In this document: one piece after another, positions 3,625-46,622 of the stretch | Layout: every line of letters begins with the position of its first letter | How positions within the stretch are numbered: position 1 is the stretch's first letter | Origin: an archaeon | GTDB lineage: Archaea; Nanobdellota; Nanobdellia; SCGC-AAA011-G17; PNOQ01 | DNA: 64,000 bases | Direction: 5' to 3' | Assembly (NCBI GenBank): GCA_018671245.1 | Contig: JABHIB010000008.1 | Location: 111,756 to 175,755 of the forward strand | Made by a program: the position numbers and the translations under genes | The notes under the pieces: model-generated | Database searches by the model: none | The model's input: only the letters and a program-made list of their open reading frames with translations | What the model was told of the DNA's origin: nothing

Positions 3625-4119
3625 TTAGACATTCTCTGAGATATTTTTTATTAGTAAAGATGCAATTAATAGTATGAAGAATGCACCAATAACTCTTGGA
3701 TGAAAAATTGTTCTAAATACATTACTAGTTCCTTCTGCAGCATAAGGTGTAAAAACTGGGCCGAATACTTTTGTTATACTCACAATTAAAGCAATTATCA
3801 TAACAATAAATATAGTAGTCTGTCCTCCAACTTTAGGCCATACATCTTTCTCATTGACACCAAAAAACATAAACAAGGTAAATAATAACAATAAGAAAAA
3901 CATCAAAAATATATACCAAGGTAAAACTGCTAAAATTAATTCTGTGGAACTACCAGAAAACATAGATATTACTGCAATACATAAACTAACAAGAAAATTA
4001 AATCTACTACTATTTCCAAGAAGTTTAGTCTTTTCGAGAATAGCATATAAGAAAACGAATATTAAAACGAATACGAATAATGGTAAAAAATTATTTAACA
4101 TAAACATATCTGTTGCCAT
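3625..4119 (-). CDS. polytopic membrane protein, member of a tandem three-paralog family
   Basis: Four to five predicted TM helices. Shares the N-terminal motif (F/L)LP(L/F)F(V/L)xxIFxxLxxILEKT with the next two genes. Confidence 0.5.
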   Translation of the reverse strand: MATDMFMLNNFLPLFVFVLIFVFLYAILEKTKLLGNSSRFNFLVSLCIAVISMFSGSSTELILAVLPWYIFLMFFLLLLFTLFMFFGVNEKDVWPKVGGQTTIFIVMIIALIVSITKVFGPVFTPYAAEGTSNVFRTIFHPRVIGAFFILLIASLLIKNISENV

Positions 4120-4200
4120 TTTCTATAATAAAACTATTTTCTTTTCTTTATAATATTATCTAAATTTGAATAATTAACACAACGGCAACTATTAGAATTA

Positions 4201-4752
4201 TTAAAATCCGCTAGTAGAACTCTTCCTAACATAATAGATTAGTCCAACTACAAGTGCTAAACCTGTAAATGCAACATAAGTATCAGTACCAATATAAAAC
4301 CAATTAGAGAAACCAAACATACTTCCATATTGATAAGGTACTAATGACCACATTGCTGCAAGTATTGCAATAATTGCTGCGGCAGTAAGTGGAAGATTTT
4401 GATGAGATCCACTCAATAGTCCAACTGCAAGCATACATACCAAAGCAAGTACCATTACAAGTCCCATTTTAGAAACATAATTATTAATTATTCCAACTAT
4501 CTCAGTATTTGCTATAACTATCAAAGATAATACTAGTGAAAAAACCATATTCATATCAGTTTTAGGATATTTAACCTCAATATGAGCAGGAGGAGGAGTA
4601 GGATTTGGTTGCATCTCAGTCTTTTTAACTCCAAGTATGAATGTTTTCTCAAGAACAGAAAAAATGATAATGAAAATTAATAAGAAAGGTAAAAGGTATT
4701 CGAACATTCCTGAACTTTGTAATTGATAATAAATTTGATGGAAATTAACCAT
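4201..4752 (-). CDS. polytopic membrane protein, paralog
   Basis: MFEYLLPFLLIFIIIFSVLEKT N-terminal motif shared with 4753-5313 and 3625-4119. Five hydrophobic segments. Confidence 0.5.
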   Translation of the reverse strand: MVNFHQIYYQLQSSGMFEYLLPFLLIFIIIFSVLEKTFILGVKKTEMQPNPTPPPAHIEVKYPKTDMNMVFSLVLSLIVIANTEIVGIINNYVSKMGLVMVLALVCMLAVGLLSGSHQNLPLTAAAIIAILAAMWSLVPYQYGSMFGFSNWFYIGTDTYVAFTGLALVVGLIYYVRKSSTSGF

Positions 4753-5313
4753 TTAGCTACCACCTTCTCCAGGACTAGCAGAATCTCTTACAACAAGATA
4801 AATAGTCCCGACAACTATTAATAAAAATACCATAGGGGCTATAACTGATGTACCAATTGCCCCGCCAATCCATGAAAAGAATCTATCAAGTATACTAACA
4901 CCATCAATACCTATAGCACTAGCAAATATGAATACAGTTCCTAGAAACATTAAAAATAAAACAAACATGAACCATTTTTTAGATTTTTCAGCTAAATCAA
5001 ACTCTCCAGTTTTTAAAAACATACCAACAAGTAATAAAAATGAAATTGAAACAACTCCCAAAAGAACTATATTTGGTAAAGCCTCATTAATAACACTAAC
5101 AACTTGATTCGTTGCCACAGTTATCAAAGCCATGACAAGAGCGACAATTGCATTTAGGTTTTTCTTTGTTCCAGAATTTCCCTCTTTTCCAAGAATCATA
5201 GTCTTTTCTAAAACTGCGAAAACAATTGCAAAAACCAGTAAGAACGGAAGTACTACATCAAACATTCCAAAGTCCTTAAGGAATTCAATTGATTGTTGTA
5301 AAGTTGATACCAT
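4753..5313 (-). CDS. polytopic membrane protein, paralog
   Basis: MFDVVLPFLLVFAIVFAVLEKT motif. Five TM segments. Stop/start abuts 4201-4752. Confidence 0.5.
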   Translation of the reverse strand: MVSTLQQSIEFLKDFGMFDVVLPFLLVFAIVFAVLEKTMILGKEGNSGTKKNLNAIVALVMALITVATNQVVSVINEALPNIVLLGVVSISFLLLVGMFLKTGEFDLAEKSKKWFMFVLFLMFLGTVFIFASAIGIDGVSILDRFFSWIGGAIGTSVIAPMVFLLIVVGTIYLVVRDSASPGEGGS

Positions 5314-21833: not shown

Positions 21834-23216
21834 TTAACTCTCCAACTTTTCTAAAATATTCTCATCAACAATCACAATATGTCCAATGCTTTTAACATTC
21901 TTGTATTTAACAATAATTCCCTTAGTTTTAAGATTTTGTTTTTTATCTAATCTAATTCTTAAACTATCAATCTTATTTTCTCCCAAGAGAACTTCATCAA
22001 CCTTTCCAATATAATTCCCTTCCCCACAATAAACTTCCCTTTTAATCAAACCTTTGATGCTATTCTTAGGATGTTTATTTATTCTATTAATTTCAATTTT
22101 TTCTATAATCTTTTTTTTATAAACAAAAGCCATTAATCCAAACAATCCGATTATTAGAAGAAATCCGAGAACATTCCAATTGTTATTAACTATACTTGAG
22201 CCACCAACAACAAAACCAGTCATAGTATTTCTTCCGATAAACAAAATTCCTACTAACATAAATCCAACAAGAATTATTAAGAAAGTTTTACCCTTAATTC
22301 TTTTCAAATTTTTCTTAATCTTGCTTTTGTATTCCTTATGTGTCTTTGGCTTTCCTACTTTTTTCTTTATTATTTTAAATTTAGATTTAAATAATCTAAT
22401 GATTAGCAAAATCAATAATACTGCAACTACACCTATAATTCCATAAACCAAATACATCCAATTAAAATTTTTTACAGGGAGTAAAGCACATTCTTCTTGA
22501 GATAAAACTTCAAAGGTTTCTCCTGCAACAGCAGTTTTATTCCCACTATAAGCAATTTCAGCATATAACCTGTATGTTCCTTGAGAAGCTGAATCTGGAA
22601 CTTTTAGTTCTATGTTGAAGCTTGTTTCTTTTTCAACAGCTCTTGTGTCCTTGTATTCAGTAATTAATTTATTATTTTTATCAATAATCCAATAAGTCAT
22701 AAAAGCATCAAGAAGTTCTACTTTAGCATAATTTTCCAATTTTACATTTGCTTTAATCTTTTTTCCAGAACAAATCTCTTTATATCCATCTTCTAAATTT
22801 AAATAAATATCAAATAAAGGTTCTGATGGGCCAAGATATTCACAAATTTGTGTTTGATTTGGCATTCCTTTTGTTCCAGTGCAATCTCCTTTATTTGCAC
22901 AAATTCTTTCTTGTATCCCTGATTCTGGGCAGATAGATGGAAACCACTCTGTACATTGCCAGTCATAAGTACACTTGCTTCCTCCAGAACTTCCTCCTCC
23001 AGGATTTGGAGTTGTGGGACAAGCTCCGCAATCTCCTGGGCAAGTTGAACAGCTTTCTCCATTATTGCAAATTCCATCTCCGCAATATAAAGACGGTGTT
23101 GAAATTTCAGAGTAATTTCCAGAACCATAAATCCCTTCTCCATAGTTACCTGCAGAAACTAATGGAATTAGAACTAATATTAATGCAAAAAAAATAAGTT
23201 TTTTTTTGATTATCAT
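21834..23216 (-). CDS. signal-peptide, Cys-rich extracellular domain, TM, C-terminal PRC-barrel-like protein
   Basis: Signal peptide MIIKKKLIFFALILVLIPLVSA and Cys cluster CGDGICNNGESCSTCPGDCGACP. TM helices near residues 255-275 and 300-360. The C-terminal 70 aa (YCGEGNYIGKVDEVLLGENKIDSLRIRL...IVIVDENIL) resemble a PRC barrel. Confidence 0.45.
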   Translation of the reverse strand: MIIKKKLIFFALILVLIPLVSAGNYGEGIYGSGNYSEISTPSLYCGDGICNNGESCSTCPGDCGACPTTPNPGGGSSGGSKCTYDWQCTEWFPSICPESGIQERICANKGDCTGTKGMPNQTQICEYLGPSEPLFDIYLNLEDGYKEICSGKKIKANVKLENYAKVELLDAFMTYWIIDKNNKLITEYKDTRAVEKETSFNIELKVPDSASQGTYRLYAEIAYSGNKTAVAGETFEVLSQEECALLPVKNFNWMYLVYGIIGVVAVLLILLIIRLFKSKFKIIKKKVGKPKTHKEYKSKIKKNLKRIKGKTFLIILVGFMLVGILFIGRNTMTGFVVGGSSIVNNNWNVLGFLLIIGLFGLMAFVYKKKIIEKIEINRINKHPKNSIKGLIKREVYCGEGNYIGKVDEVLLGENKIDSLRIRLDKKQNLKTKGIIVKYKNVKSIGHIVIVDENILEKLES

Positions 23217-25642
23217 CTTATACTCCCTCCTGGATTAATTACAAATTTACATCCATCTTCTTTATAAATTTCCCAATGAGAACTAGTAAAACTCATATTC
23301 GCATTCCAAGTTAGAGTTCCAGAACCAGTAATTGTAATATTATTTGGGACTATAAAATTAGTATCCCAAACACAATTATCAGAACATGTAATTGCCCAGT
23401 TTCCAGAATCTGGGGCTGTGCAAGTATTGAGAGCTATTGTGATTTTTCTTGTCTTAGTAATATTTAAATTTCCCCCGGTATCAATTGCATAAGCAGTATA
23501 ATTATAATTTCCAAGATTTAAATCTGTGAAATTGTTATGTAAATTATATAATCCATTATCATAAGAGGCGTTGATCTCTTCTGGACTTAATGCTCTTGAA
23601 TATATTTTGACTTCATCAATATCTCCCTTAAATAAATAACCTGCACTATTTCCTGATGCTCCTATTCTTGTAACTGCAGCACCCTTGGTTGCGGTTAATG
23701 CCTTAAAATTAGCAGAAGTTAAAGGATAATCCATTATTTCTACACCATTTACATAAACTGTTGCGGTTGTTCCATCCCAAGAGTTAACAACATGATACCA
23801 TGTATCTAATTCTGCAACAATACTTGTACCTCCAGATTGATAAGTCGGTCCACTAGCACCTGCACCTATTGTTGCAGTTATGTGGTGTGAAGTTGCTTCT
23901 AACCCAATAAAAAAAACAGAACTACCAACACTGGTTCCATCATTTCTATGAAGTGGGGTTCGCCATCCACTAGGTAAGTCTGCTGTTCGTCTTATCCAAG
24001 CTTCAACAGTCATAGCATCATAATTTCCATCAGCAGTACTTCCAAGATTAATATAATCGTCTACCCCATCGAATTCCAAAGAATATCCATATTTTCCAGT
24101 TACTAAACTTTCTTCTCCAAAATCCGCCCCAGTAAAAATTCCAAAATTATCATAACTTGAATTATCATAAACACCTGATGCATTTGTATTTTCAAAATTC
24201 CAATATCCTAACAAAGAATAATTCCAATCAAAAAATGCTGAAGTATCTAATCCGTCTGTTATTGTTGTATTTAAATAAACAAAATTTTCACTTTTTGTAT
24301 CTCCATCTGTAGGTGTGGGAGGTTCCCAAATTACTACTGGAGGATCTTGATCCACAATTGTTAAATCACTTGAATTTCCCCATTCACTATATGCTCCATC
24401 ATATAATCTCATACCACATTTCCAGACATCCCCTGAACTAGTATTTCCAGAATCTAAAACTGCATTAAATTCATAATTATTAGGATAACTTTCATTATAA
24501 TCAACAGTTAAATTCAAAACACCATCTTTATACCATCTTACTGTAACATTCATAGCATCTTCATCAATATCTAAGAGTGTATCATAACAATTTAAATCTT
24601 GATTATTTAAATTACTTCCATCAGTTGAATTAATTTCAGGAGTTGGTGTCTCTGGAGGGCCACTTACAGCAACAGTAACATTTCTTGAATCTATATTTAA
24701 ATTACCTTCTTCATCCAGAACATAAGCAGAATAATTATAAATTCCATTTTCAAGAGAAGAAAAATTATGATAAAGTCTATTTGCAGTATTATTATATAAT
24801 GCACCAATTTCTTCTGCACTTAATGCACGTTCCACAATCAATACTTCATCTACCTTACCTTTATATTGATAATTAGCACCATTACTGGATGCACCAATTC
24901 TTGTGGGAGTTGTTAAAGTATTATATGTTGCTAAAGCATATTCTTTGTTATATTCACCATTTAGATAAACTACAACATCAGTCCCATTCCAAACAGCAGC
25001 TATGTGCCACCATTCCCCATAAGTTGCAAGTTGTGTAGTTCTTCCTGCATACCAACCACCAGGGGCACCTGAATTAGCTCCAATAGTAGCAGTTAATAAA
25101 TTATCATTACTAACACCTAACCAATATGAACTTGAACCAATCGTTGTCGAAGTTGCATGATGTAAAGCACATTCATAAGAAGGGCCATCAGCAGTTTTGT
25201 AAAGCCAAGAAGCAATCGTAAGTTCGGTAGGATTACTAACAACAACATTATCTGTTTTAATATAGTCATTCACTCCATCAAATTCTAAAGCATTTCCATA
25301 TTTTCCGGTGGTTATATTTGAAGTAGTTGGTCCTCTTCCACCAAAAGTCATGAAGTTATCATAACTTGAATTATCAAAAACTCCTGTTGAATTTGTATTT
25401 TCAAAATTCCAATATCCTAACAAAGAATAATCCCAGTCAAAAAAAGCAGAAGTTTCATTATCATCGGTTATAGTTGTATTAAGATAAACCCAAGCATTTT
25501 CAGTTATATCTCCATCTGGAGGGGTTGGGGGTTCCCAAGTTATAGTTGGAGTATCAGCACTAACTAAAGCCAGAGAAAAACTAAATAATAAAAATATAAA
25601 AAAGGTTAAAATTATCTTTTTTTTTAATAATCTTTGTTTCAT
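23213..25642 (-). CDS. secreted protein with two tandem LamG/ConA-like lectin-type domains (internal duplication)
   Basis: Signal peptide. Two about 400-aa repeats each begin (T/V)(I/V)TWEPPTPxDGD...YLNTTITD...SAFFDW(D/N)YSLLGYWNFENTN. They contain LEFDGV(N/D)DYI...WYHxxxxWNGT...VYxNGE blocks characteristic of the LamG/pentraxin fold. Many N-x-S/T sequons. Confidence 0.6.
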   Translation of the reverse strand: MKQRLLKKKIILTFFIFLLFSFSLALVSADTPTITWEPPTPPDGDITENAWVYLNTTITDDNETSAFFDWDYSLLGYWNFENTNSTGVFDNSSYDNFMTFGGRGPTTSNITTGKYGNALEFDGVNDYIKTDNVVVSNPTELTIASWLYKTADGPSYECALHHATSTTIGSSSYWLGVSNDNLLTATIGANSGAPGGWYAGRTTQLATYGEWWHIAAVWNGTDVVVYLNGEYNKEYALATYNTLTTPTRIGASSNGANYQYKGKVDEVLIVERALSAEEIGALYNNTANRLYHNFSSLENGIYNYSAYVLDEEGNLNIDSRNVTVAVSGPPETPTPEINSTDGSNLNNQDLNCYDTLLDIDEDAMNVTVRWYKDGVLNLTVDYNESYPNNYEFNAVLDSGNTSSGDVWKCGMRLYDGAYSEWGNSSDLTIVDQDPPVVIWEPPTPTDGDTKSENFVYLNTTITDGLDTSAFFDWNYSLLGYWNFENTNASGVYDNSSYDNFGIFTGADFGEESLVTGKYGYSLEFDGVDDYINLGSTADGNYDAMTVEAWIRRTADLPSGWRTPLHRNDGTSVGSSVFFIGLEATSHHITATIGAGASGPTYQSGGTSIVAELDTWYHVVNSWDGTTATVYVNGVEIMDYPLTSANFKALTATKGAAVTRIGASGNSAGYLFKGDIDEVKIYSRALSPEEINASYDNGLYNLHNNFTDLNLGNYNYTAYAIDTGGNLNITKTRKITIALNTCTAPDSGNWAITCSDNCVWDTNFIVPNNITITGSGTLTWNANMSFTSSHWEIYKEDGCKFVINPGGSIR

Positions 25643-25643
25643 T

Positions 25644-27554
25644 TTAACTCTGGATTATTATTCCACTCCCATTATGATACATTTTAGCTGAGCAGTCTGC
25701 GGTGAAACAAAAAGTATCTGTTGTTGTAATATTTCCAGTTGCATTAATATCCCCCGCAACATCTAAATTTCCAGTCATAGCATCTCCACTAACATTAACA
25801 AATGCATTATCAGCATCACTTGCGGTTATGGCATTTTCCACACACCCAGTTATTTCAGAACACTCATCTTGTCCTGCAAGAGCACTATCGATTTCTGATT
25901 CTGTATAAAATAAACTTGTTAACCAACTCACCAAAATACTCAAAGTTCCATCATTATTCTCCATTTGAGTTTCATTAATAGTATTCAGGTTATCCCAATA
26001 ATCTGATGAATTAACATTTAAATCAGATTCCTCACCATCATCTATCCAATCATCTTGATTAATATCCATATAAAGTGTATCAGCTAATGATTGATTCCAA
26101 CTTGAGTTATCTCCTGTAACACTTATGCTTGCATACAAAGTGTCAGCATAAGTTTTGTTCCAATCATCTCCATAATTCACCGGAGCATAATTGTCATCAA
26201 GCAAAGTTGTCAAATCTGATTCTTCATCATAAAATATTGTTCTTGCATAACTTTCATTCCAGGATGAATTATCTCCTGCAACTCCAGAAATCTGATTATC
26301 AACATAATCTTTCATTGAATCATTAAAGATAACATCTTGTGTATCTGCATAAGCATTAGCTGGAATTGTTTGGTTGTAAGCCCAAGTGTCATAAGTTGCA
26401 TTGTATGTTGAAAGCCAGCTAGCTTCTTGTGAAGTTATATAATCAAACACAGGTGTAGATTGATTGTAATCCCATTCAATTCCTGCATAAAGTGTATCAG
26501 CTAATGATTGATTCCAACTTGAGTTATCTCCTGTAACACTTATGCTTGCATACAAAGTGTCAGCATAAGTTTTGTTCCAATCATCTCCATAATTCACCGG
26601 AGCATATAAAGTGTCTGTCAAAGATTGATTAAAAGAGGAGTTTCCTCCAGAAATTCCATCAATCCTTGTGCTCAAAGAAGAATTAACTGAATTAATTAAA
26701 TCTGTTTCATTATAATTATCTGCTATATTATCAATTGTATTATTTAACTTAGTTTCATTAAAGTAAATGGTGGTGGTATCATTATATAAATAATTTCCAT
26801 CTGCTGTTTTTTGTGTGTCTATTCCTCCCCCCCAACGAGAATCCCCTGTGTTGTTAAATATCTCATCCCATATTGTTGGAATTTCTGGTTTGTTTGTCAA
26901 GTCATTATAATCTTTATCCCATGCAGAATAAATAGGATCAGATTCACTTGTTAAATAACTCTGCAAATCACTTATCTGCGATTCTTCAATTGTAACATTG
27001 CTCCAGTCATCTGAATAAACTTTTGAAGCATAAATATTAGTAACATACAAATTCGCCCATTTTAACAATGAACTTCCTAAATTAAATAAATTATTAATCT
27101 CTGGAAGAAAAGAGCCATTTAAATATTGATTAGTTACAGTCGCATTAAGATAGCTTCCGATTAAAGATAAATTACCATTGATTATTACATTTCCATCAAT
27201 TGTTCCCCCTTCATCTTTGTCAAGATAATTAGCATCATTTGTGAACTTGCTGATTGTAACTTCTGTTAGATCTATCTTGCTTGAATTAATAGAATCATCA
27301 GCTAAATCTTCGGCACTAAGAGTTCCATCTAAAATATGGGAAGTATTTATGGAGGAAGAATAAATATTTGTCCCGTTCACCATTGTTTCATTTAATTTAA
27401 CTCCATCACTACCTGCAATTTTTGATAAAAAATCATTAAGGACCGTTCCCCAATCATTTTCATCTCCTCCTATAGTTGGAAGACGAGATGCGGATACCAA
27501 ACTCATCATCAATAAAATAAATATTCCAATTAAAAATAATTTACTTGCCCTCAT
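25644..27554 (-). CDS. secreted sequon-rich surface (S-layer-like) protein with internal near-identical repeat
   Basis: Signal peptide MRASKLFLIGIFILLMMSLVSA and more than 30 N-x-S/T sequons. The peptide block LTDTLYAPVNYGDDWNKTYADTLYASISVTGDNSSWNQSLADTLY occurs twice, encoded by about 120-bp identical DNA copies at 26068-26188 and 26486-26606. Confidence 0.5.
   Translation of the reverse strand: MRASKLFLIGIFILLMMSLVSASRLPTIGGDENDWGTVLNDFLSKIAGSDGVKLNETMVNGTNIYSSSINTSHILDGTLSAEDLADDSINSSKIDLTEVTISKFTNDANYLDKDEGGTIDGNVIINGNLSLIGSYLNATVTNQYLNGSFLPEINNLFNLGSSLLKWANLYVTNIYASKVYSDDWSNVTIEESQISDLQSYLTSESDPIYSAWDKDYNDLTNKPEIPTIWDEIFNNTGDSRWGGGIDTQKTADGNYLYNDTTTIYFNETKLNNTIDNIADNYNETDLINSVNSSLSTRIDGISGGNSSFNQSLTDTLYAPVNYGDDWNKTYADTLYASISVTGDNSSWNQSLADTLYAGIEWDYNQSTPVFDYITSQEASWLSTYNATYDTWAYNQTIPANAYADTQDVIFNDSMKDYVDNQISGVAGDNSSWNESYARTIFYDEESDLTTLLDDNYAPVNYGDDWNKTYADTLYASISVTGDNSSWNQSLADTLYMDINQDDWIDDGEESDLNVNSSDYWDNLNTINETQMENNDGTLSILVSWLTSLFYTESEIDSALAGQDECSEITGCVENAITASDADNAFVNVSGDAMTGNLDVAGDINATGNITTTDTFCFTADCSAKMYHNGSGIIIQS
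26068..26606. repeat. two about 120-bp identical direct repeats (period about 418 bp) inside the surface-protein gene
   Basis: cataaagtgtatcagctaatgattgattccaacttgagttatctcctgtaacacttatgcttgcatacaaagtgtcagcataagttttgttccaatcatctccataattcaccggagcata is present at both positions. Confidence 0.7.
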
Positions 27555-28213: not shown

Positions 28214-29140
28214 ATGAAATCTAACAATGTAAAAAAGAGCAAGTATAAAAAACTTTCTTGTCCTAATTGCAAATCAAAAAATATAATCAAATGGACAAAA
28301 AGAAAAACAGAAAATAGAGGATTAATTCAGAGATATAAATGCAATGATTGTGATAAAACATTTACAATAAATGATGGTTTCTTTAGAATGAGAAATCATC
28401 CCAAAAAAATAACTTGTGCTTTAGATTTATTTTATAGAGGAGTTTCAACAAGAAAAGTTCAAGAACATTTTAAGGCATTTTATCCTCATAATGCAGATCA
28501 TACTTCTGTTTTAAGATGGCTTAGAAAATATTCAATAATGATTTCAAAATTCACAGATAATCTTTATCTTAATATCGGACAAGAAATTCAAATTGATGAG
28601 ATGGAATATCACAGAAGGAAATTCTATAATAAAAAGGGTGTAGATAAAAATTGGTTCATTGATTGTATTGATAGTAGAACAAGATTTATGATTTCTTCTG
28701 AATATGTTAAAGCAAGAGAACAAAAAGAACTAAAATTTGTTTTATCAAAAGCAAAACAAAAAACAGGGGAGCAAGTTAAGATTGTAACTTCTGATGGACT
28801 TCTTGCTTATCCAAATGCTATTAAGAAAGTTTATGGATTTTCAAATAAAACTCATAAACTTAATGTTTATCATAATCAGGTTAATGCTTCAAAAGGTGAA
28901 GGGTTTAACATCATGATTGAAAGATTGCACAATTCAATAAGAGAAAGAACTAAAACTTTTAGAGGTTTTCATGGTTCTGTTGAAAGTGCAAATGCAATAA
29001 TGAAGGGTTATGAAATATTCTATAACTTCATAAGAAAACATCAGTCAATCAAAAGATGTCCTTATGAACTTGCTATCCCAAAATTGAAACTTAATTCTGA
29101 AAATAAATGGATGGAGTTGATTAAAATGGCAAACGAATAA
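28214..29140 (+). CDS. IS6-family transposase (DDE) with N-terminal zinc-ribbon extension
   Basis: N-terminal CPNCKS...CNDCDK zinc ribbon. HTH block GVSTRKVQEHF...DHTSVLRWLRKY aligns with IS26 TnpA (GISYRELQEML...DHSTIYRWVQRY). DDE blocks IQIDEMEY...W.IDSRTR, VTSDGLLAYPNAI and IERLHNSIRERTK match IS26 HMDETYV, TDKAPAY and IECDHGKLKR. Confidence 0.85.
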   Translation: MKSNNVKKSKYKKLSCPNCKSKNIIKWTKRKTENRGLIQRYKCNDCDKTFTINDGFFRMRNHPKKITCALDLFYRGVSTRKVQEHFKAFYPHNADHTSVLRWLRKYSIMISKFTDNLYLNIGQEIQIDEMEYHRRKFYNKKGVDKNWFIDCIDSRTRFMISSEYVKAREQKELKFVLSKAKQKTGEQVKIVTSDGLLAYPNAIKKVYGFSNKTHKLNVYHNQVNASKGEGFNIMIERLHNSIRERTKTFRGFHGSVESANAIMKGYEIFYNFIRKHQSIKRCPYELAIPKLKLNSENKWMELIKMANE

Positions 29141-37179: not shown

Positions 37180-37794
37180 ATGATACAAAAAAAACTAAAA
37201 CCAAAAAAAACTTACAACATCTACTATCTTTCCATGGATGAATTAAATAAATTAATTGAGTCAACAAAATCCTTGAGAGATCAAATAGTTCTAAAGATTC
37301 TGGCAAGAACAGGTATGAGGAGATTCGAATTATGCAACTTAAGGGTCATGGATGTAGATTTTACTAAGAGGAGAATATTCATTCCAAAGGCGAAAGGTGG
37401 CAAATTTAGAACAGTTCCTGTAGATCGAGACACATTACAATCAATTAAATTTTACATAGGTTCAAGGCAGAATGGTAAGCTTATACAGAGTAACAAAAAA
37501 GATAATGATGGGATAGACGAAAGTAGGATCAATGCAATAGTAAAAAATACTGCGATAAGGGCCGAAATTCCCCATCCTGACCCTACAAAAAGGAATATGA
37601 ACCCTCATATACTAAGACACAGTTTTATACGTCATATGCTAAAGATTGGAGTTCCACCAAATTATGTACAACAGTTAGCAGGCCATTCAGACATCAGAAC
37701 AACATTACAAATGTATGGTATTCCTAGTTTTACAGATGTTCAAGAAAAGTACGATGAGATCTCAAACACATTTTATGGTGATAAAAATATTTAA
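37180..37794 (+). CDS. tyrosine recombinase / integrase, catalytic domain only (204 aa)
   Basis: Catalytic blocks are ARTGMRRFELCNL (Arg I), HILRHSFIRHML (H-x-x-R) and GHSDIRTTLQMYG (nucleophile Tyr). There is no N-terminal core-binding domain. A 25-codon out-of-frame ORF (MAEIGHNHNVYKELLRFLGILERK, starting at 37095) lies just upstream. Confidence 0.75.
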   Translation: MIQKKLKPKKTYNIYYLSMDELNKLIESTKSLRDQIVLKILARTGMRRFELCNLRVMDVDFTKRRIFIPKAKGGKFRTVPVDRDTLQSIKFYIGSRQNGKLIQSNKKDNDGIDESRINAIVKNTAIRAEIPHPDPTKRNMNPHILRHSFIRHMLKIGVPPNYVQQLAGHSDIRTTLQMYGIPSFTDVQEKYDEISNTFYGDKNI

Positions 37795-40419: not shown

Positions 40420-40470
40420 ACAAAAGATTTTTAAGTTTAAGATTAGCAATTCTATTCCTATTTTAAATGT

Positions 40471-40545
40471 GGGCTCATAACTCAGCCTGGTCAGAGTGCT
40501 TGGCTCTTAACCATGAAGTCGCGGGTTCAAATCCCGTTGGGCCCA
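40471..40545 (+). tRNA. tRNA, probably tRNA-Lys (anticodon CUU); no encoded CCA
   Basis: GGGCTCA acceptor pairs with TGGGCCC. D-stem ACTC/GAGT. Anticodon arm CTTGG-CTCTTAA-CCATG (one U-U mismatch). T-arm GCGGG-TTCAAAT-CCCGT. Discriminator A. Confidence 0.6.
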
Positions 40546-40624
40546 TTTTCTTTTTATCGAGAATAGGAATATTTAAATAAGACCATATCAACAATCTATA
40601 TTATATTAAAAGGGTGAATAAAAA

Positions 40625-43600
40625 ATGGTGAAAAAAATAAAATTTTCTTTAACTATGTTGCTAGCATTTATCGTTATTTTTTCTGCAATCAATTCTGATA
40701 CTGTAGAAGCTAGACCTGTTACAAAAGAGTGGACAAATGTATATTGTGGAAAAGAAAGTTGCGGTTTCGATAGTTGCGAATCTAATGAGATGTGTCAAAT
40801 AAGACAGCGAGAGCTCTTTCCAAATATCTTTCCGGTAATTCACCCTTCCGGAGAGGGACCTCTGAAAGCTCCAATAAATTCACCAATTAAAATAAGAAGT
40901 GTTGCAGAAACACCTTCAATTTCACCAACCTCAGAATTTAGAAAAGATGAAACTCGAAGTTTTTTTGAAAAAACTAAACAGTGGTTATCTATTCAATCAA
41001 GATGTACTCCTTCTAATTTATGTGTTAATTCCTGTGATGATGGGATAGATAATGATGGAGATAGAAATTTTGATTCAAAAACAATACAAAATTTTGCAGC
41101 AGAAGGAATTTCAGTTAGTAGACAAGAATCTGCATGTGATTCAAAAGTTCAAGATCAAAGAACAGGTGAAAGTAATTGCATGCTTTATTTCACTGAGAAT
41201 ATGAATAATCCGAACTTCATAGCAGAAGGTATTGGGCTATGTAATACAGAAAGTACAAGTGGATTGAAAGCAATATTGAGACCTTATACAGAAAATTGTG
41301 ATCCAAATTTTAACAGAGTATCAATTTCAAATCTCGAACATATGGTTGATGGTGCAGTATTAGATAACAATGAACTTTGTGGATCATATTTTGATTGGTG
41401 CTGTGTTGACCTTGGAAGCGATGTCTATGATCCCAGTGGCACATTAGGTAGTGTAAATAATTTCAGATATCTTGGAGACGGACTTTGCCAAGGATGGTTA
41501 GATGATGAAGACCCTATGCAAGTTTGTAGGGGAGAGTATAATGCTAATCCTAGTACTAACTGTACACTCGACGTTGATGGTGGTTGGACAATATGGAACT
41601 CAGAACTATACTATAATTCTCTTTGGACAGATTCCTCAGGGACACCTCAATCTGACTGTCTTTTGACTGAAGTTGATTGTGATTGGACTGTATGGCCATT
41701 TGGTGCAGCAGAAAACTGTGAATCTGGAGATACTGCAGAAATTCCTGAAGTGGGTTTGGTAGTAATTGATTGGGAAGAAGGGTCAACCTGTTCATATGGT
41801 CAACACACAAGACAGTGTTCATCAGGTAGTTATACTTGGAGTGAATGGGGTACTTGTGATGGTGCTGTTCCTGGAGAGTATGCCCAAGAACTATCTTGTA
41901 ATGATGGCGAAGATAATGATTGTGATGGATTAATTGATAGTTACGATGATGATTGTGGAATCTGTACAGTAGGAGCTGCAATAACTCAATCTTGTGGATA
42001 TAATGCTATAGGGATTTGTACTATCGGAACAGAAAATGCAGACTGTGAGTATAATGCTGGAACAGGATTATGGGAATTCAATGATTGGCACAGTTGCGAT
42101 GCAATAATGCCAACTACAGAAGATTGTAATGATGCGAGTTTATTAGATGAAGATTGTGATGGGACTTCAAATAGTGGAGATACTGAATGTGGAACCTGTA
42201 CAGAAGGGGATGCAATAACTCAATCTTGTGGATATAATGCTATAGGGATTTGTACTATCGGAACAGAAAATGCAGACTGTGAGTATAGTGGTGGGCAATG
42301 GAACTTTGGAGATTGGCACAGTTGCGATGCAATAATGCCAACTACAGAAGATTGTAATGATGGTGAAGATAATGATTGTGATGGATTCATAGATAGTGAT
42401 GAATTAAATAATCCTGATGAGACTAATGAATGTGGTGAATGTATAAGCTCTTCTCAAGACACACAAGCATGTGGTTATGATTATAATGGGGAATCTGGAG
42501 GAATAAATTATGGAATAGGTGAATGTACTGAAGGTACAACTTACTCTGATTGTGAATTTGTTGCAAATCTTTGGCAATGGTCAGAATTTCATAATGGTTT
42601 AGGTATATCTGATAATCCTACAACTTTATTAGTAAATGAAGGTTGTGGGGGATCATATTTGGGACCAGAAGAAGAATACTGTGATGACGGTTTAGATCAA
42701 AACTGTAATGAAGAAGCAGATGAAGGATGTTATGATTCTTTTAGAACATTCTTTGTTACAAATCCTTTAGATTTCCAGAACTATGATCTAGCTGAAGAAA
42801 GTTCAATAGCTTTTGATTCAACTATGGTAAATGAAGATGGTACAGGTTCTGCAATAATGGTTTACAGATCAGGAACAATAAATAAGGCCTTAAATTTTGC
42901 AAAATATGTTGGTCCTGCTGCTGCAACTTATGAGATGCCTGGTTCTGGAAGTTGTGGATATAATGAATTTGGTCAAAGGTTAGGTACATTTGAATGTTCA
43001 ATAGTGGATGGATCGGATGATACTGATGGGGATGAAAATTCAATTGTTATAGATACAACTGGAAAGATACATGTTACATACACTCATAAATCAACAGGAA
43101 ATATAGGTATAAAATATGCCTCCTCTATCGATGATGGACAAACTTGGACAATATCTGTTGTAGATCCTTCAGTGATGGGAACAGATTATGCCTATCCTGA
43201 GATATTTTTAGTTGGAAACATACCTCATATGATTTATACTAGAGTTTCTAAAAACACTCCTGTACCATTTGGAGAAACAGATGAAGTTTATCACGCTTGG
43301 TTAGAGGGTACTACTTGGAATAAGGAAACTATTGCAAGTGCGCCAACTTATTATGGTATGTATCCTGGTGACATGTATAGGTCCTCAGTAGATTATGATT
43401 CGACAACAGATACAATTCATGTGATCTATAAATCTCATGAATGCACCCTACCAAACTGTCCAAGGAATATATTCTACACACAAAAAGTAGGAGCTGGAAC
43501 TTGGAGCAATCCTCAGAATATCCTAACAGTCAATGACGAAATATATAGGACCAGATTATCAATAAAAGTTGGAGGGGACGGAAACCTACACATAGTACAC

Positions 43601-43975
43601 CCTCATAAAGATGTATCTGGAGATATAAGGTCTCTAAAATATGCAACCTCTACAAACGGTGGTACTTCTTGGACATACGAAGATTTGAGTACTTGTGCAG
43701 CTTACAACCCTCAATTAACTATAACTGTGGAAGGGTTACCAAGATTAACGGCATGGTCTTGGGCATGTGGTGGAGATGACTATGATCAATGGTTCTTTTA
43801 CTATCTTTCAGAATCTGGATGGAATTCAGAGAGAGTAGAAGAAGGAACAAACACTGCATTATTTAATGGAGAAACTGGATCAATAACAATTGATAATACA
43901 AATAAGGTCCATACAAGTTATTTGTTTACTTCCAATGTTGGTGTAGATACCTTAAGATATGCACATATATTATAG
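40625..43975 (+). CDS. giant secreted cysteine-rich repeat protein with C-terminal BNR/Asp-box beta-propeller
   Basis: Sec signal MVKKIKFSLTMLLAFIVIFSAINSDTVEA. Repeated CxDGxDNDCDG(L/F)ID motifs (CNDGEDNDCDGLIDSYDDDC, CNDGEDNDCDGFIDSDE, CDDGIDNDGD). Asp-box motifs SIDDGQTW and STNGGTSW. Blade-like strands IHVTYTH, IHVIYKSH and LHIVHPH in the last 350 aa. Confidence 0.6.
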   Translation: MVKKIKFSLTMLLAFIVIFSAINSDTVEARPVTKEWTNVYCGKESCGFDSCESNEMCQIRQRELFPNIFPVIHPSGEGPLKAPINSPIKIRSVAETPSISPTSEFRKDETRSFFEKTKQWLSIQSRCTPSNLCVNSCDDGIDNDGDRNFDSKTIQNFAAEGISVSRQESACDSKVQDQRTGESNCMLYFTENMNNPNFIAEGIGLCNTESTSGLKAILRPYTENCDPNFNRVSISNLEHMVDGAVLDNNELCGSYFDWCCVDLGSDVYDPSGTLGSVNNFRYLGDGLCQGWLDDEDPMQVCRGEYNANPSTNCTLDVDGGWTIWNSELYYNSLWTDSSGTPQSDCLLTEVDCDWTVWPFGAAENCESGDTAEIPEVGLVVIDWEEGSTCSYGQHTRQCSSGSYTWSEWGTCDGAVPGEYAQELSCNDGEDNDCDGLIDSYDDDCGICTVGAAITQSCGYNAIGICTIGTENADCEYNAGTGLWEFNDWHSCDAIMPTTEDCNDASLLDEDCDGTSNSGDTECGTCTEGDAITQSCGYNAIGICTIGTENADCEYSGGQWNFGDWHSCDAIMPTTEDCNDGEDNDCDGFIDSDELNNPDETNECGECISSSQDTQACGYDYNGESGGINYGIGECTEGTTYSDCEFVANLWQWSEFHNGLGISDNPTTLLVNEGCGGSYLGPEEEYCDDGLDQNCNEEADEGCYDSFRTFFVTNPLDFQNYDLAEESSIAFDSTMVNEDGTGSAIMVYRSGTINKALNFAKYVGPAAATYEMPGSGSCGYNEFGQRLGTFECSIVDGSDDTDGDENSIVIDTTGKIHVTYTHKSTGNIGIKYASSIDDGQTWTISVVDPSVMGTDYAYPEIFLVGNIPHMIYTRVSKNTPVPFGETDEVYHAWLEGTTWNKETIASAPTYYGMYPGDMYRSSVDYDSTTDTIHVIYKSHECTLPNCPRNIFYTQKVGAGTWSNPQNILTVNDEIYRTRLSIKVGGDGNLHIVHPHKDVSGDIRSLKYATSTNGGTSWTYEDLSTCAAYNPQLTITVEGLPRLTAWSWACGGDDYDQWFFYYLSESGWNSERVEEGTNTALFNGETGSITIDNTNKVHTSYLFTSNVGVDTLRYAHIL
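41963..42430 (+). repeat. tandem 234-bp (78-aa) duplication inside the giant secreted-protein gene with about 120 bp of 100% identity
   Basis: gcaataactcaatcttgtggatataatgctatagggatttgtactatcggaacagaaaatgcagactgtgagtata and agttgcgatgcaataatgccaactacagaagattgtaatgatg are identical between copies starting at 41963 and 42197. Confidence 0.7.
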
Positions 43976-44005
43976 GATCTAACCACTTTTTATTTATTAT
44001 AGGAT

Positions 44006-45394
44006 ATGAATATGAAACATGAAAATATCAAAAAATACCTTTTCATAAGCTCACTAATAATCATGTTACTTCTTTTAAATTTTAATTCTATCCATTTTTC
44101 TAAAACTAGGGATATGAGTGAGCCTGTTTGGATAGAACAAGGTTGCGGACTAACTGTTTGCGGAATGAATTCTTGTGGGCATGATGAAATGTGCCAATCA
44201 TCAATCTCAGAAAAAATTCCTGACTATCAAATCTATCTTCCTCCTCAAATCCCTCTCTCTCCATTGAAAGTAGAAAAAGTTTCGACTAGTAAAATTGTTC
44301 CAGATTATTTAGAGCCAAGATCTTTTTTTGTTGATAGAAAATATAGGTGTCATCAAACTCTTGATTGTATAGATACTTGCAATGATGAGGTAGATAATGA
44401 TGCAGATGCAATGGAAGATTCTTCGGATCCCAGCTGTTCAGGTACAAAAGGTTCGGATAGGACTGCTCCTAGAGCTTGTCGAACTCTCTTCGACGGCAGA
44501 ATTTCAGATCCAGACTTCATAGCAGAAGGTTCTGGTCAATGTCTTGATGATTTTAATCAAGAATCCTGTTTAGCACTAAATATTGGGAATGAAAAATGGA
44601 CAGATATAATAAATTTGGAGTATTTGCATGCGGGTGGAGCATTAAATAATAATGGTCTTTGTAATAGTTGGTTCACAAGTTGCTGTGTACAAATAAAAGA
44701 TGAAGGTGGTCAACCTACTCCTATATATAATCCTACAGGAACTATATACAGTGAAGCGGATGAAAATTATATTGATCATTTCAAATACTGTGGAGACAGT
44801 TATTGTCAAGGGTGGAATGCAGTTCAAACAATAAAGCTTCCTGACTGGTTTATTGAATCTGGAACTATTTTTATGGGCGAAACTTTTAATTCGTGTCACT
44901 GGACTAATATTGCAGGAACTCCTGATGATTCTTCTGATGATTTTGTTGAATCTGATTGCAACATAGAACCCTATAGTTGCACTGTAACTGATAATCCTGA
45001 AGGGATGCTACAATACTTTCCTCCAATAGGGAATCTATATCTAAGCAATATTACAAATGCTCATGTAGCGACTTCAGCAGGAAGTTATGATTACAGAGTC
45101 TATTGTTCTTATGCATACTATTTCATGTCTTCTTCTCAGGAATTTGATTTTTTAAGAATAGAATCGACTGGAGAAAATGCCCATATCGAGTCTACAGATC
45201 ATTCAAGTTATGGATATACAGATTACAAAATAAACACAGAAGGGGATTGTTTTGTTTATGATCAACCAGGTGATTGCCCTGCAGATACGGAAACTCAATC
45301 ATTCTGCGTGATCGCACTATCTGATGTAACAAATGCCCATGTGGCAGATTGTTCAGAAGAAACATATGACTATAAATTATGTTGTAACTATTAA
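44006..45394 (+). CDS. secreted cysteine-rich protein, paralog of the N-terminal module of 40625-43975
   Basis: Sec signal. Shares ordered motifs CG..CG...SCG.DEMCQ, RSFF, C..C(N/D)D..DND.D and FIAEG.G.C with the preceding gene. The C-terminus has three TNAH(V/I) repeats. Confidence 0.5.
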   Translation: MNMKHENIKKYLFISSLIIMLLLLNFNSIHFSKTRDMSEPVWIEQGCGLTVCGMNSCGHDEMCQSSISEKIPDYQIYLPPQIPLSPLKVEKVSTSKIVPDYLEPRSFFVDRKYRCHQTLDCIDTCNDEVDNDADAMEDSSDPSCSGTKGSDRTAPRACRTLFDGRISDPDFIAEGSGQCLDDFNQESCLALNIGNEKWTDIINLEYLHAGGALNNNGLCNSWFTSCCVQIKDEGGQPTPIYNPTGTIYSEADENYIDHFKYCGDSYCQGWNAVQTIKLPDWFIESGTIFMGETFNSCHWTNIAGTPDDSSDDFVESDCNIEPYSCTVTDNPEGMLQYFPPIGNLYLSNITNAHVATSAGSYDYRVYCSYAYYFMSSSQEFDFLRIESTGENAHIESTDHSSYGYTDYKINTEGDCFVYDQPGDCPADTETQSFCVIALSDVTNAHVADCSEETYDYKLCCNY

Positions 45395-45440
45395 TATTCA
45401 TTAGAAAATTATTTAAACAAAAGAAACGAATTTAGAAACA

Positions 45441-46622
45441 ATGAAAAAAAGAGGTATATCTCCACTAATAGCTACAGTTCTGATAGTCGGGTTTACTATA
45501 CTCCTAGCAGTAATAATTATTTCTTTTATAGGTTCTGAAGCAGATTCACAAATTAATCAAACTCAAACCACCATAAATATTCATACCACTAATTTAGATT
45601 TTGATTTTGAATGTACAAATATAATCAATGTAACAAGTGGTGAAAATAATACAGAACTCTTAGTAATAAATGATTATAATGGTAATTTGGATTCAGTTGT
45701 TATATTATTTGGAGATGGATCAATATATCATAATGCTGTTAACCTCTCTGCCTTTGAAAATAAATTAATAAATTATACAAACATTTCTAGCTCAGAAATT
45801 GAGATTATTCCTCAAGTTATTATTGATGGAGTTTTACAAGGTTTAGAGTGGGAAGCGAAAACAAAAACTTGTTCAGAGAGTATTCTACTCTCTACTCCAA
45901 AATGTAATGATACTATAGATAATGATGATGATGGATATGGCGATGAGGATGATCCTGACTGTTTAGATCCTCTAACTGGAGTATATAATTCTAGTTTAGA
46001 TAATGAGTGGATAACAAGGTCATGTGATAGCTGTGCTGATTGTGAAAGTGATATGAAAACTCCATCACTTTGGTCAAGTTATGATACTAATGAAGTAGTT
46101 TTGATGAATGATGATTCAGTTGAGAATGCTTGTATTACTCTAACTATAAATGAAAGTAATTCTGTAATAAATTGTAATGGAAAAACTATCTCTGATGGGA
46201 CAGTAGGACTAAATCTATTAGGAACTACAAATGTAACTGTAAAGAATTGTTCAATCAATGATTTTGAAAGTGGCGCTATAATGGTGACTGGCGCAATAGA
46301 TACTACACTAGAGGATATAATAATAATTGACAATATTGCAGGGTTAACTTCTCAGATTCTAGTATCTAATAATCCTGGCGGATATTTAAAATTAAATAAT
46401 ATTGAATCCCTAAACTCTTACCCTATATTAATTTGGTTTAGTTCTCTCGGATCAATAACTAATCTAGAACTAACAAATGTGAACTCCTGTACTGCTACAT
46501 ACTCTGATTTATTATGCTCTAGTCCTATAGATCCAACTATCTTAACTGCTGATACATCAAACTATTTTGCAGACATAGGTACTTGCGGACTTACAGCAGG
46601 CGAACATTATACTACATGCTAA
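45441..46622 (+). CDS. class III (type IV pilin-like) signal peptide protein with parallel beta-helix-like domain
   Basis: MKKRGISPLIATVLIVGFTILLAVIII is the archaeal prepilin-type N-terminus (KRG|ISPLIATVLL), processed by PibD/FlaK-type peptidases. The C-terminal NCNGKTISDG...VKNCSINDFESGAIMVTGAIDTTLEDIIIIDN resembles right-handed beta-helix repeats. Confidence 0.65.
   Translation: MKKRGISPLIATVLIVGFTILLAVIIISFIGSEADSQINQTQTTINIHTTNLDFDFECTNIINVTSGENNTELLVINDYNGNLDSVVILFGDGSIYHNAVNLSAFENKLINYTNISSSEIEIIPQVIIDGVLQGLEWEAKTKTCSESILLSTPKCNDTIDNDDDGYGDEDDPDCLDPLTGVYNSSLDNEWITRSCDSCADCESDMKTPSLWSSYDTNEVVLMNDDSVENACITLTINESNSVINCNGKTISDGTVGLNLLGTTNVTVKNCSINDFESGAIMVTGAIDTTLEDIIIIDNIAGLTSQILVSNNPGGYLKLNNIESLNSYPILIWFSSLGSITNLELTNVNSCTATYSDLLCSSPIDPTILTADTSNYFADIGTCGLTAGEHYTTC

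Follow-up and report, generated by a model that had tools for sequence, protein, structure and literature searches.

The stretch of 64,000 nucleotides analyzed here (the window; positions 111,756 to 175,755 of contig JABHIB010000008.1, assembly GCA_018671245.1) carries a cassette of three consecutive genes on the plus strand, whose products of 1116, 462 and 393 amino acids are termed P1, P2 and P3. The locus is that of an archaeal modular pilin (P3) with partner adhesin-like proteins (P1 and P2). The idea that the three genes constitute an adhesion module, which had been put forward in an earlier note made from the letters of the window, is reasonable but unproven. The window belongs to a 193-kb metagenomic contig (ENA ERZ4200964 NODE_14). 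Its source is a marine archaeon of small cell size with a GC content of about 30%. An origin from a member of the DPANN archaea (the note had spoken of an episymbiotic-type archaeon) is supported by the close relatives found in GTDB, the genomes of which are those of Woesearchaeota.

The cassette begins 78 nt downstream of a tRNA-Lys(CTT) gene, which was the sole match when the window was searched against Rfam (Table 1). The three open reading frames (ORFs) that the earlier note had listed downstream of the tRNA were confirmed. They are tightly packed in the same direction, with 30 nt between P1 and P2 and 46 nt between P2 and P3, and the unit is closed downstream of P3 by a convergent winged-helix gene. 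That the genes are real follows from their ratios of nonsynonymous to synonymous substitution rates (dN/dS), which are 0.12-0.24 in the comparison with the closest relative. All three proteins contain an even number of Cys residues and are strongly acidic (D+E 14-16%, K+R 3-6%). Each has a single hydrophobic segment, which is N-terminal, so that export signals are present throughout, as previously claimed, the one of P3 being of the class III type. A scan for sigma-70 promoters and terminators gave no excess over shuffled sequences, the sigma-70 model not being applicable to archaea.

Table 1. Features of the cassette and of other parts of the window (positions refer to the window; aa, amino acids)
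Feature	Position	Strand	Description
tRNA-Lys(CTT)	40470-40546	+	ARAGORN; Rfam 64.4 bits
P1	40625-43975	+	1116 aa, 56 Cys
P1 signal peptide	40625-40711	+	aa 1-29, MVKKIKFSLTMLLAFIVIFSAINSDTVEA; only hydrophobic segment of P1
P1 N-module	40730-41713	+	aa 36-363; Cys-rich, common to P2
P1 repeats	41789-42730	+	about 3.5 tandem units of 76-78 aa, 8 Cys each
P1, two adjacent repeat units	41937-42362	+	228-234-nt spacing
P1 propeller	42725-43972	+	aa 701-1116; predicted seven-bladed beta-propeller, BNR/Asp-box related
P2	44006-45394	+	462 aa, 26 Cys
P2 'TNAH...YDYK.CC' triple repeat	45023-45391	+	aa 340-462; three repeats, C-terminal
P3	45441-46622	+	393 aa, 14 Cys
P3 class III signal (MKKRG/I) and hydrophobic alpha-1N helix	45441-45533	+	aa 1-31
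P3 pilin module	45534-45890	+	aa 32-150
P3 acidic disulfide-closed loop	45903-45962	+	aa 155-174, CNDTIDNDDDGYGDEDDPDC; closed by two Cys
P3 right-handed beta-helix module	46023-46619	+	Pfam match at aa 256-345
XerA-like tyrosine recombinase	37180-37794	+	204 aa, catalytic domain only; NF040815 145 bits (cut-off 220)
T2SSE-family (PilB/FlaI-like) ATPase	171-2483	-	770 aa
Small paralogous membrane proteins	3625-5313	-	three proteins of 164, 183 and 186 aa with similar N-termini
Second cluster of signal-peptide proteins	21834-27554	-	three co-directional genes (636, 809 and 460 aa)
Secreted protein of high sequon content	25644-27554	-	
Secreted protein of high sequon content	23213-25642	-	
ORF with DDE_Tnp_IS240 match	28214-29140	+	308 aa, N-terminal zinc ribbon

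The pilin-like protein P3

Modular in build, P3 belongs to the type IV pilin-like proteins and corresponds to a 'modular pilin' as defined for bacteria (PMC8179133). It starts with MKKRG/ISPLIATVLIV (in full MKKRG/ISPLIATVLIVGFTILLAVIIISFIG), i.e., with a short basic leader that ends in Gly and is followed by a hydrophobic helix (Kyte-Doolittle maximum 3.13, aa 4-36). The Pilin_N profile (PF07790; cut-off 25.2) was matched with 28.0 bits by the full-length protein and with 30.0 bits by its N-terminal 150 aa, and TIGR02537 (cut-off 20) with 32.5 bits. As both cut-offs were exceeded, the archaeal class III signal that the earlier note had recognized could be confirmed. The N-terminus also aligns with those of the solved archaeal pilins 9myg and 8gi2, and a PDB sequence search with P3 returned nothing but pilin N-termini.

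Within the family, conservation is highest in the pilin module that follows the signal. The identity between aa 1-150 and distant homologs is 42%, and dN/dS in this part is 0.09, whereas it is 0.33 in the remainder of the protein. Signal and pilin module recur almost verbatim in related archaea, where they are fused to Laminin_G_3 or to GH43/GH32 domains; one of these fusion proteins is annotated as originating from Woesearchaeota. In P3, the pilin module is followed by the acidic disulfide-closed loop, which gave a sub-threshold match to NF033662 (20.7 bits) and is of a motif type also present in P1 and P2. Regarding the C-terminal module, aa 151-393 scanned alone matched Beta_helix (PF13229) with 26.7 bits, narrowly above the cut-off of 25.9. 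The homolog in the locus L012 gave 35.6 bits for Beta_helix and 23.1 bits for NosD, a precomputed PF13229 match exists for the homolog P0011, and the match of the ortholog in SI048_bin40 was 'weak'. With these homologs as support, the beta-helix assignment of the earlier note was retained.

Modular type IV pilins known from bacteria include PilB and PilC of Streptococcus sanguinis, which carry a vWA and a lectin module, respectively, as well as ComZ, which carries a beta-solenoid (PMC8179133). P3 resembles them in that a class III signal and a pilin module precede a bulky functional module, and in that related archaea combine the same pilin module with different ones (LamG, GH43/32). It differs in the signal, which is archaeal (PF07790/TIGR02537) and not of the bacterial type (IPR012902), in the functional module, which is a right-handed beta-helix preceded by the acidic disulfide loop, and in its constant pairing with two genes for Sec-exported Cys-rich partners. 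The concept of a 'modular pilin', as documented in bacteria, is thereby extended to archaea, with one pilin module combined with a beta-helix, LamG or GH43.

Archaeal class III signals are also found on surface proteins that are not part of pili, e.g., the sugar-binding proteins of the Sulfolobus bindosome (PMC4858521). As in P3, the signal of these proteins serves both export and anchoring, and the ligand-binding domain so displayed is large, but the binding module of P3 is a different one and the context lacks an ABC transporter. The presence of a T2SSE-family pilus or secretion ATPase in the window was counted in favor of the explanation preferred below.

The gene for this ATPase lies near those of the three small membrane proteins listed in Table 1. 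ATPase and small membrane proteins may belong to one pilus or secretion apparatus.

The Cys-rich partner proteins P1 and P2

P1 is an exported multidomain protein composed of a Sec-type signal, the N-module, MopE-like repeats and a seven-bladed propeller. Cleavage of its signal peptide is predicted from the layout of n-, h- and c-regions. P2 is likewise exported and consists of an N-terminal signal or anchor (aa 1-31), the N-module (aa 42-336) and the triple TNAH repeat. The N-modules of the two proteins share 29% identity (BLASTP, E=1e-29), so that P2, as stated in the earlier note, is a paralog of the N-terminal part of P1. Alignments of the module revealed the conserved motifs CCV and [YF]xGDxxCQGW, whereas alignments of the P2 family showed that the TNAH repeats are conserved up to the C-terminal CC in every member. 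The N-module with [YF]xGDxxCQGW and the TNAH triple repeat represent two uncharacterized sequence families. PDB sequence searches with P2 and with a profile of its family did not find anything. The ENA protein P0004 (438 aa) was left out of the final P2 alignment; its first half is 92% identical to P2 and the rest unrelated, probably due to a frameshifted or chimeric gene call.

Each unit of the P1 repeats bears an acidic CxDGxDNDCDGxxD loop, which is the MopE-type motif. The DNA of the two adjacent units listed in Table 1 is 90-91% identical, which indicates a recent tandem duplication. Tandem Repeats Finder at its default score did not report a tandem repeat, whereas a direct-repeat search did detect the units. 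The number of units probably varies between lineages, because the ortholog in SI048_bin40 has 1253 aa as compared to the 1116 aa in the window. A word-indexed homolog search with P1 yielded only P1 itself and one MopE-repeat protein (P0002, 1075 aa), which the repeats matched with 219 bits (E=3.6e-59, 41% identity). P0002 reaches 114.8 bits on PF11617 in 9 stretches, and both proteins have 8 Cys per 74-76-aa unit; unlike such PF11617 proteins, P1 contains only about 3.5 units, flanked by a novel N-module on one side and by a propeller on the other. The MopE-type repeats of the earlier note thus stand by homology to a true PF11617 protein, whereas P1 itself misses the Pfam cut-off (see below). 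Because the P1 loop DNDCDGFIDSDE fits the EF-hand-type pattern DxDxDGxIxxxE, the acidic loops are probable Ca2+ sites, which is more plausible than Cu sites; EF-hand profile matches to the repeats are weak (E=0.07-0.2). The copper-binding (MopE) reading of the repeats was rejected, as the motif is of a generic kind, an acidic DxDxDG loop.

The C-terminal domain of P1 is, according to its structural model, a BNR-related propeller and not a sialidase. An exhaustive HMMER search with aa 701-1116 gave 239 weak matches at E<=1e-3 (the best with 113 bits). Among the 73 best homologs, 53 match BNR_4, 29 BNR_2 and 14 BNR, and their blade consensus 'sIAvD..G..HvvY....L.YA.S.DgG.tW' can also be read in P1. 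Two clear Asp-boxes are present (SIDDGQTW at aa 834 and STNGGTSW at aa 1009). A PDB sequence search with the propeller did not find anything. The AlphaFold model, built with 15 propeller homologs (predicted local distance difference test (pLDDT) 77, predicted template modeling score (pTM) 0.84), comprises 28 strands arranged as seven four-stranded blades, and its best structural matches are seven-bladed propellers. Blade consensus and Asp-boxes are shared with the BNR/Asp-box propellers (BNR_4, PF15892; BNR_2, PF13088), from the sialidase-type members of which P1 differs by having seven blades instead of six and by the fusion to Cys-rich modules. R-x-P does not occur anywhere in P1, which accordingly has no FRIP motif, and a signature of the Arg triad was not found in it either. 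A true sialidase (GH33/GH34) was rejected because of the seven blades, the missing FRIP motif and template modeling (TM) scores of only 0.44-0.52 with six-bladed sialidases. Of the sialidase-like propeller in the earlier note, the Asp-boxes and the BNR-related fold remain; the blade number, the missing FRIP motif and sub-threshold Pfam BNR scores speak against the sialidase part.

Conservation, divergence and chromosomal setting

A GTDB search with one pattern, covering 185,579 species, yielded 5 loci, and the order P1-P2-P3 is kept in four lineages. The neighborhood of the window is found in two lineages, the group of the window, L002, L003 and L008 on the one hand and SI048_bin40 on the other. 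In L011/L006 and L012, which are Woesearchaeota metagenome-assembled genomes, the full cassette is located elsewhere, upstream of an RsmB-like gene and without the tRNA-Lys. In L007 and on TARA scaffold75708 (genes 72075 and 72076), a P2-like gene is the neighbor of a P3-like one; one family member stems from a TARA mesopelagic sample (0.1-0.22 μm fraction), which points to small cells. Because the gene order recurs in the distant L011/L006 and L012, the three genes travel together over deep divergence, at which the identity of P2 drops to 26-28% and P1 still aligns end-to-end at 24% (E=3e-41).

The cassette is under purifying selection yet fast-evolving. Between the window and its closest relative (L002/L003), the cassette proteins are 72-86% identical, whereas SerRS, TopA, PAC2 and the recombinase are 95-97% identical; the corresponding values are 40-45% and 74% (flanks and housekeeping genes) for SI048_bin40, and 27-35% and 75-82% (flanks) for L011 compared with L012. 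The dN/dS ratios of the cassette given above contrast with 0.02-0.05 for housekeeping genes, the highest values being those of the beta-helix half of P3 (0.33) and the P1 repeats (0.30). The divergence between the L011 and L012 cassettes could stem either from fast diversification or from the replacement of alleles.

In these two cassettes (L011, 3320-10169; L012, 3097-10073) the architecture is kept whereas the sequences are hyper-divergent. The signal peptides of their P1-like proteins and of the L011 P2-like protein end in the lipobox-like strings LFISSC, LFISGC or IFISSC (L011, 3320-8993; L012, 3097-6936). P1 and P2 of the window do not have Cys at the lipobox-like position, and anchoring may not be of one type in all lineages.

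According to the earlier note, the tRNA-proximal cassette was part of a variable genomic island. Taken to its end, this explanation would make the cassette horizontally acquired cargo of an island integrated at the tRNA by means of the upstream recombinase, which is largely refuted by the data and thus highly improbable. It could draw on the tRNA-Lys directly upstream of P1 and on a tyrosine recombinase gene another 2.7 kb upstream, but three conserved genes stand between the latter and the tRNA, and the recombinase gene is situated on the side opposite to the cassette. With 97% conservation in the close relative and a counterpart of 225 aa at the same place in SI048_bin40, the recombinase has the appearance of a resident gene and not of a newly arrived integrase. 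Words of at least 11 nt derived from the tRNA were not found elsewhere in the window on either strand, i.e., an att-like repeat is missing. The raw GC content of P1 and P2 (0.35-0.37) is higher than the usual value of about 0.30, as might be expected of foreign DNA, but the excess is located at codon position 2 and therefore reflects amino-acid composition, and the GC content at third codon positions (GC3; 0.19 in P1, 0.22 in P2 and 0.16 in P3) is native when compared with housekeeping genes (0.17-0.24). The synonymous divergence (dS) between the window and its closest relative is 0.43-0.71 inside the cassette and in the flanks alike.

The different neighborhood in L011 and L012 and the hypervariable sequence would also fit an island. 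Against this stands a shared gene order (HTH, recombinase, Zn-ribbon, PAC2, membrane protein, tRNA-Lys, P1, P2, P3, wHTH, SerRS, TopA; HTH, helix-turn-helix; wHTH, winged HTH), which is kept in the close relative, with its housekeeping identity of 95-97%, and in SI048_bin40, where SerRS and TopA are 74% identical. The cassette with the same flanks is present in L002, L003, L008 and SI048_bin40, and in L003 and L010 the P1 orthologs are preceded by the same tRNA-Lys. A metagenome scan with SerRS found only relatives of 48-64% identity, in which synteny was lost altogether, so that they offered no locus at which an empty site might be scored. A scan of viral contigs did not yield relatives of P2 or P3. 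An integrative element was accordingly rejected, given the missing att repeat, the native GC3 and the conserved synteny. The tRNA-Lys is a conserved neighbor and not an integration site, and the cassette is chromosomal and vertically inherited, not a mobile island. The proposed variability of the locus is one of sequence (hyper-divergence) and not of presence or absence, the neighborhood being conserved in the two relative lineages sampled. Such conservation is what the earlier note itself had named as speaking against an island.

Adhesion and alternative functions

A role in surface adhesion or binding appears to be the most plausible reading of the cassette as judged from its sequences. With moderate confidence, we regard it as a Ca2+- and disulfide-stabilized apparatus for surface adhesion or glycan binding, displayed via a modular pilin, vertically inherited in a group of marine Woesearchaeota and specific to it. 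In this apparatus, P3 would be processed by a prepilin peptidase after Gly5 of its class III signal, and the hydrophobic N-terminal helix would insert into the membrane or a type IV pilus-like fiber, so that the anchored protein could display its pilin module, the acidic disulfide-closed loop and the right-handed beta-helix. P1 and P2 would be exported via Sec, locked by disulfides, probably loaded with Ca2+ and kept free of N-glycan sites. The N-module that they share may tie them to a common partner, be it P3, each other or the envelope, and their distal modules (the P1 propeller and the TNAH repeats of P2) would bind the ligand. The target may be a glycan-rich surface, i.e., the envelope of a host cell or a particle of polysaccharide, which is likely because propeller and beta-helix folds are typical of carbohydrate recognition or cleavage. 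The exposed modules diverge fast, which would serve to tune specificity.

Several results weigh against this interpretation. The N-module did not match Pfam or, in a profile search, the PDB, and the TNAH module did not match either database. AlphaFold returned an unusable model for P2 (mean pLDDT 34, from a 7-sequence alignment). P1 stays below the cut-off of 27 for PF11617, its repeat region reaching 14.7 bits and its best single motif 20.2 bits, and misses the Pfam BNR cut-offs (BNR_4, 12.1 bits, E=0.12; 16.5 bits in the L003 ortholog). PF13229 was not listed in the scan of full-length P3, the narrow pass being that of the C-terminal half alone. Genes for a prepilin peptidase (A24) or TadC/FlaJ were not found within the window. 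Incorporation of P3 into a pilus is not implied by a class III signal, a bindosome-like mode being compatible with it as well. What the analysis shows is gene structure and linkage, domain identities, export signals, conservation and evolutionary rates; the processing of P3, the formation of a complex, the binding of Ca2+ and the ligand are what we infer, and host dependence of the organism is assumed from its phylum alone.

The main rival explanation holds that the proteins are surface-anchored polysaccharide-degrading enzymes serving nutrient scavenging instead of adhesion, with the P3 beta-helix as a pilin-tethered enzyme resembling pectate lyases or glycosidases and a P1 propeller like those of GH145, PL42 or PL24/25. 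We consider this explanation unlikely on the whole. The structural neighbors of the modeled propeller do include GH145 BT3686, BACINT_00347, the PL42 rhamnose-glucuronate lyase and ulvan lyases, and P1 showed a weak NCBIfam match to the BT3686 rhamnosidase (E=0.005), but the identity to those enzymes is 11-14% and their catalytic residues are not identifiable in P1, whereas the non-catalytic lectins PLL and BP39L and the C-terminal domain of CylK match the model as well or better. Polysaccharide lyases and hydrolases often adopt beta-helix folds, and the pilin signal of P3 is the one fused to GH43/GH32 in related Woesearchaeota; nevertheless, no profile of a carbohydrate-active enzyme family was matched. 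Moreover, enzymes with a fixed substrate are rarely found at 27-35% identity when their flanks are at 75-82%.

The content of N-glycosylation sequons (N-x-S/T) bears on both export and function. P1 contains 1 sequon where 13.6 are expected (P<0.0005), with depletion in each of its three domains. The numbers are similar for the orthologs (2 observed and 12.2 expected in P1 of L003, 0 and 11.9 in P1 of L012, 1 and 8.5 in P2 of L011). Sequon counts are neutral in cytosolic proteins, and two secreted proteins of the second cluster are enriched about 2-fold, with 34 observed versus 14.2 expected (25644-27554) and 26 versus 14.3 (23213-25642). This pattern suggests that selection keeps P1 and P2 free of N-glycans, which in turn supports export, since such selection makes sense only under exposure to the oligosaccharyltransferase.

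The depletion also bears on the view that P1 to P3 are structural envelope components (associated with the S-layer or a sheath) that lack a specific ligand and in which the Cys/Ca2+ repeats rigidify a lattice. Being large, acidic, exported and conserved within lineages, the proteins would suit such a role, and large secreted proteins encoded beside archaeal type IV pilus loci have been discussed as possible S-layer proteins or adhesins (Makarova et al., PMC4858521). It is the secreted proteins with many sequons elsewhere in the window, though, that look more like glycosylated envelope proteins; P1 to P3 do not have a C-terminal anchor, and extreme divergence together with the swapping of distal modules fits recognition better than lattice building. 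A purely structural role is thus quite improbable. Preserved architecture, divergence several-fold faster than that of the flanks and selective loss of sequons form a signature of specificity determinants, as expected for the adhesion apparatus.

A narrower version of the adhesion reading would treat the cassette as an archaeal analog of the bacterial PilY1/minor-pilin tip complex that sets the host specificity of an episymbiont. The propeller of P1, or the N-module common to P1 and P2, would dock on P3 at the tip of a type IV pilus, and the hyper-divergent, unglycosylated distal modules (Ca2+/disulfide repeats, TNAH repeats, beta-helix) would recognize glycans of the host envelope. The PilY1 propeller is seven-bladed and binds Ca2+. 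Similarities to the tip complex (PMC7541494) comprise a large Sec-exported protein with a C-terminal beta-propeller encoded beside a pilin-like gene, Ca2+-binding motifs (putative in P1) and a presumed adhesive N-terminal part. Judged by sequence, the version fails on PilY1 membership, as the C-terminal segment of P1 has no Pfam match to the PilY1/PilC family (PF05567) at E<=10. PilY1 is also absent among the top PDB structural matches of the P1 propeller, which is BNR-related, so that the resemblance would be a functional one only. This version is compatible with the data but appears rather improbable; if it were true, changes of host in marine Woesearchaeota would be mirrored by the allelic divergence of the cassette.

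Host recognition and attachment are poorly understood in the DPANN archaea, and the locus is a concrete candidate conserved across lineages. If the three products were merely generic surface proteins, it would be of local interest, for the annotation of DPANN genomes. We know of no Woesearchaeota in culture, and a literature search did not return any description of such a cassette.

The second cluster of secreted proteins in the window is of a different composition: its 809-aa protein has two Laminin_G_3 domains, and its 460-aa protein combines a PRC-barrel with membrane segments. Beside it lies the 308-aa ORF with an N-terminal zinc ribbon, which matched DDE_Tnp_IS240 with 32.7 bits and is the only clear mobile-element gene noticed in the window.

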